Shown here: piece by piece, positions 3,001 through 6,000 of the stretch | How positions within the stretch are numbered: position 1 is the stretch's first letter | Layout: every line of letters begins with the position of its first letter | Virus record (IMG/VR): IMGVR_UViG_2698536397_000009 | Length of the DNA: 28,739 bases | Direction: 5' to 3' (one strand) | Origin: a virus | Taxonomy: Duplodnaviria; Heunggongvirae; Uroviricota; Caudoviricetes | Made by a program: the position numbers

Positions 3001-6000
3001 ATACAAGAACCCTAGGCCAGCGAGTTCTGGCGCGACGAAAAGAATTACGCTTAACACAACGAGAAGCTGCGCGCCTCGCTGGAGTTGCTCACGTCACAAT
3101 TTCACAATGGGAAAGAGACGAAACCCAGCCAGTCGGAAAACGATTGTTTGCTTTAGCGGATGCTCTGAAGTGCTCACCTACATGGCTAATGTTTGGTGAC
3201 GAAGACAAGGCACCAGTGCCTGCACAAGAACTTCATGTGGAAACAGAGCTAACTCCCAACCACAAAGAATTGATCGAATTATTCGATGCTCTTCCATCTT
3301 CCGAGCAGGAAGCCTTGCTGTCTGAAATGCGCGCAAGAGTAGAAAACTTCAACAAACTCTTCGAAGAAATGCTTAAAGCGCGTAAAAATAAATCAATAAA
3401 ATAACATTCTTTTCAAGTGATTAGTTGCGCCCACTCTTTTTGTTAGGCTAATCTAACAAAAACACCTGCCTCTCATGTTAGGTTATTCTAAATTACTTTC
3501 CATCAAGACACCGCACGGTGTTCTCAGCAAACAGTTCCGCTACCCCGGCGTTAAGGGGAAATGAGGTCAGCATGGATACTATCGATCTTGGCAACAGCGA
3601 ATCTCTGGTATGTGGCGTGTTCCCCAACCAGGACGGCACGTTCACCGCGATGACGTATACCAAAAGCAAAACGTTTAAAACCGAAAATGGTGCCCGTCGC
3701 TGGCTGGAAAGAAACTCAGGTGAGTGATATGGATTTCGACACAATCATGGAAAAGGCTTACGAAGAATACTTCGAAGGCCTTGCCGAAGGCGAAGAAGCT
3801 CTCAGCTTCAGTGAGTTTAAACAGGCACTCAGAATAAGAATGTGCTCTCACAATGACGCGGAGCACAAATATGAGAAGCAAAATCAGACCGCAGAAAATT
3901 TTGTTCTGGAACCCGGAGAAACGCTTTTCAAAATTCCCGTTACGTGCCCCATTTGCGGTTTTACATCAGAAGAACTTGACGACTCCTGTAACAATCAGGA
4001 AACAACCAAGTATGTCGAAGATGATACCGAGTGCGCACGAAGAACGATTATATCCACGAGTCCAAACTCCAGGGCCAATAAATCTCACTTTGAGAGGATG
4101 ATTAATCCACTCCCCCAAACCAATAAAAAAGATGCCGGAGGACAAAAAACCCAATGGAACAACGGGATATCTGTCAAAAAAAGACGTTCCATTAAAGACA
4201 AACAACGCAGCGCCAACAACTGTAAGCGCTTTATACCAGTAATCAATTTTCATGTTCTTAAGCGGATTTATTGGTGGTTGCGACATTGCTTAATGAATCC
4301 TTAAAACTGTGGTGATTTTAAGGATACCACCTCGCCTGACGTGGTTAAAAGCAGGCACACAACACGAAAGCGCACGGCGAAGTTCGTCTCACTGTACGGT
4401 GTCGTTAAATTTAATTCGACCGTGCGCTTCCGGTTGTGGCAACCCGCAAAATGGCGCGGCGGTAAGTATGGCGGGGTTATTCCTTCCCCGTTGAGGACAC
4501 CGGGTTGTCAGGTTGACCATACGCTTAAGTGACAACCCCGCTGCAACGCCCTCTGTTATCAATTTTCTGGTGACGTTTGGCGGTATCAGTTTTACTCCGT
4601 GACTGCTCTGCCGCCGTTTTTAAAGTGAATTTTGTTATGCGGTGAATGCGGCTAAGCGCACGCGGAACAGTTAAAACCAAAAACAGTGTTATGGGTGGAT
4701 TCTCTGTATCCGACGTTAATTGTTAACTGGTTAACGTCACCTGGAGGCACCAGGCTCTGCATCACAAAATTTATTGTTGAGGACGCGATAATGAAAACGT
4801 TATTACCAAACGTTAATACGTCTGAAGGTTGTTTTGAAATTGGTGTCACTATCAGTAACCCTGTATTTACTGAAGATGCCATTAACAAGAGAAAACAAGA
4901 ACGGGAGCTATTAAATAAAATATGCATTGTTTCAATGCTGGCTCGTTTACGTCTGATGCCAAAAGGATGTGCACAATGAATTCAGCATTTGCGCTTGTTC
5001 TGACAGTTTTTCTTGTTTCCGGAGTGCCAGTTGATATTGCAGTCAGTGTTCACAGGACAATGCAGGAGTGTATGACTGCAGCAACCGAACAGAAAATTCC
5101 CGGTAACTGTTACCCGGTCGATAAAGTTATTAACCAGGATAATATCGAAATCTCGGCAGGTCTTTAAAACAGTTCCGTAATAAATATCCGGTTTCATTCT
5201 TATATGCCAGCAATGGCAGGGATTTGTTCATCCTTAAATCTGTCATGAGGTTAAAACAAAATGAGTAAAGTCTTTATTTGCGCCGCTATTCCTGACGAAC
5301 TGGCAACAAGGGAAGAAGGCGCTGTGGCTGTAGCCACAGCCATTGAAGCTGGCGACGAACGCCGTGCTCGAGCAAAATTTCACTGGCAATTCCTGGAACA
5401 TTATCCGGCTGCTCAGGACTGCGCTTATAAATTTATTGTCTGCGAGGATAAACCTGGCATACCCCGCCCTGCCCTCGATTCATGGGATGCTGAATATATG
5501 CAGGAAAACCGCTGGGATGAGGAGTCTGCTTCTTTTGTCCCGAATGAGACTGAATCCGATCCGATGAACGTCACTTTTGACAAGCTGGCCCCTGAAGTAC
5601 AGAACGCTGTCATGGTTAAGTTCGACACATGTGAAAACATCACCGTTGATATGGTTATTAGCGCACAGGAATTGTTGCAGGAAGACATGGCAACATTCGA
5701 CGGACATATCGTTGAAGCGTTGATGAAAATGCCAGAAGTTAACGCCATGTATCCGGAGCTTAAGTTGCACGCCATTGGGTGGGTTAAGCATAAATGTATT
5801 CCTGGTGCTAAATGGCCCGAAATTCAGGCAGAGATGCGCATCTGGAAAAAACGTCGCGAAGGTGAACGCAAGGAAACCGGAAAATACACGTCTGTTGTTG
5901 ATCTCGCACGCGCCAGAGCCAATCAACAGTACACTGAAAATTCAACAGGAAAAATCAGCCCGGTCATTGCTGCCATTCATCGCGAATACAAGCAGACATG

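Follow-up and report, generated by a model that had tools for sequence, protein, structure and literature searches.

Two probably coding frames in complete antisense overlap and exact codon register, one of them encoding a predicted three-helix membrane protein, in the immunity region of a Qin-type prophage

The closest described counterparts of the locus analysed here are phage genes that lie opposite an early operon. The sieB genes of Rac, lambda, and P22 encode small prophage membrane proteins and have the early-operon transcript antisense to them, and in P22 sieB is controlled by the phage antisense RNA sas (PMC12197685). In the B3-like Pseudomonas phage Fc02, the early-operon gene that follows ner (gene 10) is in antisense overlap with olg1/olg2, which are expressed during lysogeny, and both gene 10 and olg1 gave superinfection exclusion when expressed (PMC9936078). 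Here we analyse a pair of overlapping open reading frames (ORFs) in the immunity and early-left part of a Qin-type prophage, contained in the virus record IMGVR_UViG_2698536397_000009, the whole stretch of which (28,739 nucleotides [nt]) is hereafter called the window. A chimeric plus-strand ORF (3729..4304) entirely covers the gene of a predicted three-helix membrane protein of 106 amino acids (aa) on the minus strand (3966..4286). According to our analysis, both strands probably code, as two genuine genes in complete overlap on opposite strands and in exact codon register.

The minus-strand gene of the window resembles sieB in encoding a small prophage membrane protein antisense to the early-operon transcript, and it occupies the same slot and orientation as sieB of Rac, after the repressor and DUF1391 genes and on the strand opposite the early operon. 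The order in Rac is racR, ydaG, ydaF (DUF1391), opposite-strand sieB, and kilR, while in the window it is dicA, ydfA (DUF1391), the ydfB-derived plus ORF, and the opposite-strand membrane gene; in the window as well as in related prophages, the interval from the repressor/DUF1391 genes to the kil/dicB-type early genes thus contains a gene on the opposite strand. The antisense partners differ, that of sieB being a 105-nt small RNA (sRNA) whereas that of the window gene is a long conserved ORF in exact codon register. Fc02 is similar in that the gene directly after cro/ner overlaps an opposite gene transcribed in the lysogen and in that one partner is insoluble or membrane-like. However, in Fc02 the insoluble protein is on the early-operon side and the lysogeny product is soluble, whereas the window pair is reversed, and the Fc02 case rests on experiments while the window pair rests on comparative selection signatures across at least 17 lineages. 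A tblastn search with the membrane proteins of the window and of phage mEp390 returned no Pseudomonas phage. Long ORFs embedded in antisense have likewise been proposed in E. coli and Pseudomonas (PMC9927249, PMC8850804, PMC7457138); these cases are described as evolutionarily novel or come from single-strain ribosome profiling, whereas the window pair is conserved across diverged phages and displays a deficit of stop codons, as judged from sequence alone. In open-access text, no paper on this membrane family or on the overlap was found.

The plus ORF, which starts with MDFDTIMEKAYEEYFEG and comprises 191 codons and a stop codon (4302-4304), shares its codon boundaries with the minus ORF, since the plus codon at 4284-4286 (CAT) complements the minus ATG and, throughout the overlap, every codon of the plus ORF pairs with a single codon of the minus ORF as its reverse complement. 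These are the only two of the six frames that are free of stops across 3966..4286, the remaining four containing 2, 10, 4, and 7 stops, and the plus ORF ends 5 codons beyond the start codon of the membrane gene. Its last 111 residues are rich in N (10.8%), K (9.9%), and R (9.0%), with 59% polar or charged residues and a net charge of +9. Because second codon positions pair with each other in this register, so that hydrophobic NTN codons face hydrophilic NAN codons, this K/R/N-rich tail mirrors the hydrophobic helices encoded on the other strand. The original prediction had described an open plus frame at 3729-4304 with a K/R/N-rich distal half and a minus ORF at 3966..4286 with three hydrophobic helices; both ORFs were found at these coordinates, and the helices were confirmed by hydropathy and by structure modelling.

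Comparative analysis indicates that the minus ORF is a genuine conserved gene under purifying selection, encoding a member of an unnamed family of three-helix membrane proteins. Protein searches with the 106-aa product yielded 60 homologues, down to 34% identity, from sources that include Yersinia, Herminiimonas, and Reinekea, while tblastn with the same protein matched the phages mEp390 and Bcep176, and 27 further loci came from a scan of genomes of widely differing bacteria, with Roseateles and Arcobacter among the genera. A profile search against 1.84 billion representatives gave 492 matches at E values of ≤1e-3, of which 218 were at ≤1e-10. The members are about 100-110 aa long, and an alignment of 21 of them (A1) displays two invariant motifs, Y-W-Y-K-A close to where helix 1 begins and G-x-G-E-W-x-N-H-P where helix 2 ends, both of which are present in the window protein (IDYWYKAL and GLGEWINHPL). 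The membrane protein had no significant match in Pfam, NCBIfam, PADLOC, or PHROGs, and the defence models of PADLOC-DB returned no family at E values of ≤1 for either ORF or for four relatives.

The Kyte-Doolittle peaks of the membrane protein begin at residues 20, 42, and 85, and AlphaFold2, run on the family alignment, places helices at residues 17-32, 42-62, and 85-105 (mean predicted local distance difference test [pLDDT] score of 82.7), with a beta hairpin (E65-71/E74-79) between helices 2 and 3. The predicted topology is that of an inner membrane protein with its N terminus inside and its C terminus outside; the loop charges fit this orientation, which would bring both conserved motifs (DYWYKA and GLGEWINHPL) to the cytoplasmic face. 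Comparison of the modelled structure gave generic fold matches only.

Substitution patterns in the overlap follow the minus frame. Among the Escherichia variants, the ratio of nonsynonymous to synonymous substitution rates (dN/dS, Nei-Gojobori) is 0.06-0.21 in the minus frame and 0.85-1.9 in the mirror plus frame, and the differences pile up on minus third codon positions (e.g., 11/7/37 over the three positions). In four other phage clusters, the corresponding ratio of proportions (pN/pS) is 0.04-0.29 for the minus frame versus 0.9-2.4 for the plus frame. All 27 haplotypes of the window type have an intact minus ORF, and among them the single-nucleotide polymorphisms of the overlap are 16 synonymous to 14 not in the minus frame and 5 to 25 in the plus frame. 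The antisense small membrane protein envisaged by the original prediction is therefore deemed a real gene on the basis of its homologues, invariant motifs, and purifying dN/dS. Conservation supporting the plus frame only had been named as the pattern that would speak against it, and the opposite was found, amino acid conservation in the overlap favouring the minus frame.

Some observations on the family concern single lineages. In mEp390 (L007), L023, L129-L134, and L136, the membrane gene apparently starts with TTG, with AAGGAA ahead of it, and such a start would hide the gene further from gene callers. In the chromosome of an Arcobacter sp., three identical copies with identical flanks are present in one genome (L030, L031, and L032), and the gene may therefore be carried by a repeated or mobile element. 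A DUF5677 gene was considered as a partner, since it follows the membrane gene in Herminiimonas (L210 5001-6179), and was rejected as it is found in none of the other 26 non-phage loci; a DUF5677 gene is also located near the Qin-type prophage of E. coli 55989 (L002 1-44), and the neighbourhood is probably coincidental.

Upstream of the minus ORF, a Shine-Dalgarno-like AAGGA (4298..4302, minus strand) precedes the ATG by 11 nt, and further upstream a promoter-like element on the same strand (4321..4349) consists of a -35 hexamer TTTAAC (4344-4349; consensus TTTA(A/T)C), a 14-nt gap, and an extended -10 TGgTATCCT (4321-4329), the two hexamers being 17 nt apart. The element overlaps an ACCAC-N10-GTGGT inverted repeat, and its approximately 35 nt are nearly base-for-base the same in the window, L009, and L013, although the coding sequences are far more diverged, the proteins being 51-58% identical. 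By sequence, the element looks like an extended -10 promoter of the membrane gene; it could in addition serve as an operator or form an RNA hairpin in the plus-strand transcript. A scan with a promoter consensus did not call this conserved element, and a terminator scan after the minus ORF gave nothing convincing. The element is also present upstream of the membrane genes in L016-L019.

On the other strand, the plus ORF of the window matches the PHROGs family phrog_35040 with an E value of 7.2e-140 (residues 1-191 on profile positions 15-205 of 205), and the plus ORFs of other lineages match it at E values of 9e-30 to 3.5e-5, while that of mEp390 has no match. PHROGs lists this family without a function and without a note that about 70% of it complements another conserved gene, and the window copy has a foreign (ydfB) N terminus. 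Directly 5' of the overlap, and thus outside the minus ORF, the plus frame holds a conserved module (LEPGETLFKIPVTCPICGFTS, 3906..3968), found as ..PGE..F.IP..CP.CG(F/H).. in the window, L009-L015, and Roseateles. Between the window and lineages whose membrane proteins are 51-58% identical to that of the window, the codons of I-P-x-x-C-P-x-C-G-F change at the plus-frame wobble position only (TGC/TGT, CCC/CCT/CCA, GGT/GGA/GGG, and ATT/ATC/ATA).

A second contig scan, with an mEp390-type query, extended the comparison to 40 distinct viral loci, the first scan having yielded near-identical E. coli copies only. Except for L174, in which the upstream frame is broken by stops, all of these loci contain in frame either a type A module (..P.G....PLY.KCP.CGCDL) or a type B module (FFE.L...PGSV.ID.....VTL.GW.L). 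Differences in the module are distributed over the three codon positions as 162/128/353 in type A and 357/283/606 in type B, and pN/pS is 0.29 and 0.44, respectively, while it exceeds 1 in both shifted frames. These patterns indicate that the plus-frame module upstream of the overlap is under purifying selection. The window follows the layout of phrog_35040-type ORFs, with a type A module (CPxCG) and then no stops over 106 codons.

A further signature of the plus frame comes from the codon choice of the membrane gene. Only three of its codons, TTA, CTA, and TCA, read as stops on the plus strand, and in the enteric prophage lineages local codon usage leads one to expect 3.0-5.2 in-register stops per gene; five lineages, 39-58% identical to the window protein, display none and use the Leu codons CTT, TTG, CTC, and less often CTG. 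Among the viral loci, 31 of 40 are free of any in-register stop. In 7 of the other 9, no stop occurs beyond codon 17 of the membrane gene, and the plus ORF thus still spans 90-102 of 107 codons; L022 has a single stop at codon 11 of an N-terminally extended ORF call, and L182 has stops up to codon 43, leaving a plus ORF that spans only 62 of 105 codons. As a control, 312 windows, each 106 codons in length and drawn from long ORFs in these loci, contained a mean of 3.46 in-register stops, and 10.9% contained none. When membrane proteins are clustered at ≥70% aa identity, 10 of 17 clusters have zero stops, for which the binomial P value against the control is 2.2e-6, or 1.2e-5 when the clade of the window itself is left out, both values being approximate because the lineages are related by descent.

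Stop avoidance is confined to the loci that carry the N-terminal module. In non-phage homologues lacking it, observed stops are close to expectation (12/8.0, 10/10.4, 6/7.0, 10/11.5, and 5/4.4), and homologues outside phages range from 5 to 17 plus-frame stops. The plus ORF invariably terminates soon after it has passed the start codon of the membrane gene, 5-23 codons past it wherever the plus frame is wholly free of stops. The module, the stop avoidance, and its specificity for phage lineages are each independent of how the window was chosen. On this comparative evidence, the plus frame in the overlap is under a "no stop" constraint, its amino acid sequence not being independently constrained. 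The original prediction had offered the plus frame as a possible artefact of an A-rich sense strand, in an either/or with the membrane gene; that opposition fails, since the proximal part of the frame is selected and the distal part is free of stops in diverged phage lineages.

Comparison with K-12 explains the chimeric nature of the plus ORF. Homology to the Qin prophage of K-12 ends at 3826 and restarts at 4347 (blastn), and between these points a 520-bp cassette (3827..4346), which contains both overlapping ORFs and the promoter-like element, takes the place of the last 8 codons of ydfB, ydfC, and about 120 nt further downstream in K-12. K-12 ydfB and ydfC are located in the same slot between ydfA and DicF, and the first 34 ydfB codons are common to both; unlike in K-12, the 3' end of ydfB and all of ydfC are replaced by the cassette in the window. 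No ydfC-homologous DNA was found by blastn in the window between ydfB and DicF, ydfC of K-12 (L003 2764..3162) having no counterpart there. The statement, in the original prediction, that K-12 has short ydfB and ydfC genes at this place is correct (ydfB is annotated with 42 aa). Its description of the plus frame as an extended YdfB-like one fits only the first 34 codons (3729..3830), the ATG of which lies one base past the stop codon of ydfA; similarity to full-length YdfB, including its C terminus and stop, was sought and failed, and the remainder belongs to another phage ORF family. The plus ORF thus joins 34 ydfB codons in frame to cassette DNA of a phrog_35040-type ORF. Sequence comparison indicates that cassette recombination made this in-frame fusion, and the plus ORF is therefore predicted to be translated within the ydfA-ydfB reading unit of the dicB operon.

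The cassette is present in 806 of 5,426 complete E. coli genomes, and a search of E. coli genomes for it with "distant" blastn settings returned nothing beyond the megablast matches. The Prokaryotic Genome Annotation Pipeline (PGAP) treats the locus in two ways, either as "ydfB, incomplete, missing C-terminus" (102 nt) with nothing further annotated up to dicB or, in other genomes, with the plus ORF as the hypothetical protein WP_000344958.1. The minus ORF is annotated in none of the phage and E. coli records inspected, because annotation either favours the longer ORF on the complementary strand or treats the locus as a ydfB pseudogene; NCBI nevertheless lists the 106-aa protein, as WP_247162388.1 and others. 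In some Escherichia variants (L018 1039-2531 and L019 3252-4738), a PaaA2/ParE toxin-antitoxin pair is located between the dicA-like repressor gene and the cassette. In variants of this type, the plus ORF begins at the position of the ydfA start and not within ydfB and runs 103 codons further, the products being called at 245-271 aa. The differing recombination joints all preserve the open plus frame.

The genomic setting of the pair varies among phages. The rightward early operon has the plus ORF as its second gene in the majority of phage lineages, among them mEp390 and a widespread Yersinia prophage. In many loci, the plus ORF is separated from cro by only 1-36 nt (3 nt in Yersinia prophage P0088), its stop is ≤30 nt from the start of the next ORF in 27 of 36 loci, and this next ORF typically has 155-156 aa and is one that we take to be cII-like from its position alone. 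In the window lineage and L009-L017, the pair is instead located in the leftward (dicB- or kil-type) early operon adjoining the repressor gene, with the membrane gene convergent with the latter. Bcep176 gp33, which the annotators of mEp390_039 cited for the plus ORF, was considered as a relative of that ORF and rejected, since it sits on the strand of the membrane gene.

From these positions, the membrane gene would be expressible in the lysogen and the plus ORF would be under early-lytic control. The membrane gene would be transcribed in the lysogen from its own promoter-like element, counter to the early lytic operon, and its product may, at the inner membrane, exclude phages or abort their infection, which we consider its likeliest role, if only tentatively. 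The superinfection-exclusion or immunity role suggested in the original prediction is accordingly a reasonable conjecture, given the sieB-like slot. The membrane gene is probably best described as an accessory ("moron") gene of temperate phages. At the onset of the lytic cycle, a full-length antisense RNA could switch the membrane gene off by transcriptional interference and RNA pairing, in a manner resembling the sieB/sas/Esc logic of P22. Selection would keep the early transcript translated right across the antisense of the membrane gene, and the plus ORF would fill the space between cro and the next gene. Rho prefers untranslated RNA that is rich in A and C and poor in G. Across 4000-4224, the plus strand has this composition (GC skew of -0.13 to -0.21 and AT skew of +0.42 to +0.46) and its RNA would therefore be a good Rho substrate if untranslated. 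A stop within the plus ORF would leave about 300 nt untranslated, at the risk of polarity on the downstream early genes, whereas translation across the overlap would shield their expression from Rho. The selected N-terminal module also suggests a role for the plus product as a protein. Taken together, the pair could form a self-contained mobile switch module that passes between immunity regions, consisting of antisense genes in codon register and of opposite timing, in which the lysogeny-side membrane protein excludes or aborts phages and the early-lytic protein, or its obligatory translation, neutralises it. We regard this complete scheme as possible, though somewhat less likely than not.

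Several points weigh against parts of this interpretation. The exclusion role is proposed because of position alone, that is, the sieB-like slot, and homology to SieB was considered and rejected, there being no Pfam SieB match and a probability of 0.3% in hhalign of A1 against Rac SieB. The orientation is not universal, since in L140 the membrane gene ends the repressor operon and the plus ORF stands alone opposite, and in Bcep176 the membrane gene (gp33) is embedded against the operon with no antisense ORF spanning it. In the window, approximately 490 untranslated nt separate the plus ORF stop from dicB, which weakens a pure anti-polarity argument here. The plus-frame pN/pS of the overlap makes no case for a sequence-specific protein function. 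A nonsense codon is present in the plus ORF of 2 of 27 E. coli haplotypes, and in L016 a stop immediately follows CPVC; the plus ORF is therefore dispensable or decaying in defective Qin-type prophages, and the nonsense alleles are consistent with relaxed selection in these.

Of the competing explanations, the one that survives best, although we consider it rather unlikely, is that of two interacting proteins, the membrane protein excluding or aborting phages and the early-operon protein serving as the phage's own escape factor, analogous to Esc for P22 SieB. The plus product would then act through its N-terminal module and a basic, disordered tail with a C-terminal helix. The selected module implies a role at the protein level beyond a translation start, the timing of the two genes is opposite by position (early lytic operon versus antisense from an own promoter or in the repressor operon), precedents exist in P22 sieB/esc/sas and Fc02 olg1/gene 10, and AlphaFold2 predicts the C-terminal helix with a pLDDT of about 70-80. 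Against this, the tail has no independent amino acid constraint, and CPxCG is swapped for GW in many lineages, so that there is no conserved metal site. A zinc-ribbon or Lar-like plus product was considered and rejected, since CPxCG occurs once only, without a second conserved Cys pair, and GW takes its place in type B; the Cys-type leads from the library scans were weak (PHROG Lar-like, E = 0.3; Pfam rubredoxin-like, E = 0.13), and neither the plus ORF nor its relatives had a significant match in Pfam, NCBIfam, or PADLOC. The explanation by interacting proteins overlaps with that of two antisense genes of opposite timing rather than excluding it.

It is considerably less probable that the membrane gene alone is real and that the plus frame is a shadow ORF, open by chance and favoured by gene callers because it is longer. 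The in-register antisense frame is the one most often open by chance, as it was in the 10.9% of control windows given above, and the plus-frame pN/pS in the overlap is as expected for a non-coding mirror frame. The plus product is mostly disordered in the AlphaFold2 model (pLDDT of 48.6), "disordered" being a weak statement because the alignment has only 12 rows and the model is poor. Nonsense alleles in E. coli and the many antisense stops of distant homologues also fit a chance frame. However, the purifying-selected module stands in frame directly upstream of the overlap in the 40 viral loci, L174 excepted, stop avoidance is far above chance and occurs only alongside this module, and little space separates the plus ORF from cro on one side and from the following early gene on the other.

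That the plus frame alone is real, as an extended YdfB-like gene, with the three-helix minus ORF a by-product of an A-rich, hydrophilic sense frame, is hardly tenable: PGAP and the phage annotators call the plus ORF or nothing in the records inspected, and PHROGs has a family for it and none for the minus ORF, but the minus-frame substitution pattern, with dN/dS of 0.04-0.29 and third-position changes, already contradicts this, the membrane family reaches many genomes with 5-17 plus-frame stops, its motifs are invariant, the minus ORF is intact in every haplotype while the plus ORF is not, and the minus structure model is confident.

The functionality of long antisense overlapping ORFs in prokaryotes is disputed, and here the two frames leave separable signatures, amino acid constraint on one strand and stop avoidance with a selected N-terminal module on the other. 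Some Leu codons of the membrane gene can be exchanged for synonymous ones that introduce stops into the plus ORF, which makes the question directly testable. If both products are made and the open frame is required, the pair would be among the clearest comparative cases for selected long antisense overlapping genes. It is located at the heart of the lysis-lysogeny region, adjoining cro/cI or within the dicB operon, and may represent an exclusion or abortive-infection function of a new kind that has its antisense control built in. It may also illustrate how early phage transcripts are kept intact when a gene is embedded against their direction. None of Pfam, NCBIfam, PHROGs, and PADLOC contains the membrane family, which comprises about 490 representative clusters.

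The remaining features of the region are those of a Qin-type immunity region. A dicC-like cro gene (2689..2919, minus strand) is divergent from the dicA-like repressor gene (2997..3404, plus strand), and ydfA (DUF1391; 3572..3727, plus strand) immediately precedes the plus ORF in the early operon, which is of the dicB type. Downstream in the same operon, the DicF sRNA (4565..4616, plus strand; Rfam RF00039, 72.5 bits) is followed by dicB (4791..4979) and then ydfD. An 823-aa exonuclease (5261-7732) and an excisionase (7805-8056) are encoded further on; both are intact in the window and annotated as frameshifted pseudogenes in strain 190 (L001/L211), which is otherwise 99.9% identical.

A second prophage-like insertion, truncating ynfG, occupies 19653-28739 of the window. 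The ynfG remnant is an 84-nt fragment annotated as "4Fe-4S binding protein" (19653-19736; annotation transferred from a 100% identical genome), and it is followed by genes for an antA/antB antirepressor, TraR/DksA, ead/Ea22-like, and DUF551 proteins and by hok (23550-23705), at which a match to the sok RNA is located (23381-23555; Rfam, 111.5 bits). A giant LPD5-domain gene extends on the minus strand from 24602 to the end of the window. Between the truncated ynfG and the antirepressor gene, near the end of the element, 20054-20142 matches sRNA-Xcc1 at the Rfam gathering level (71 bits).

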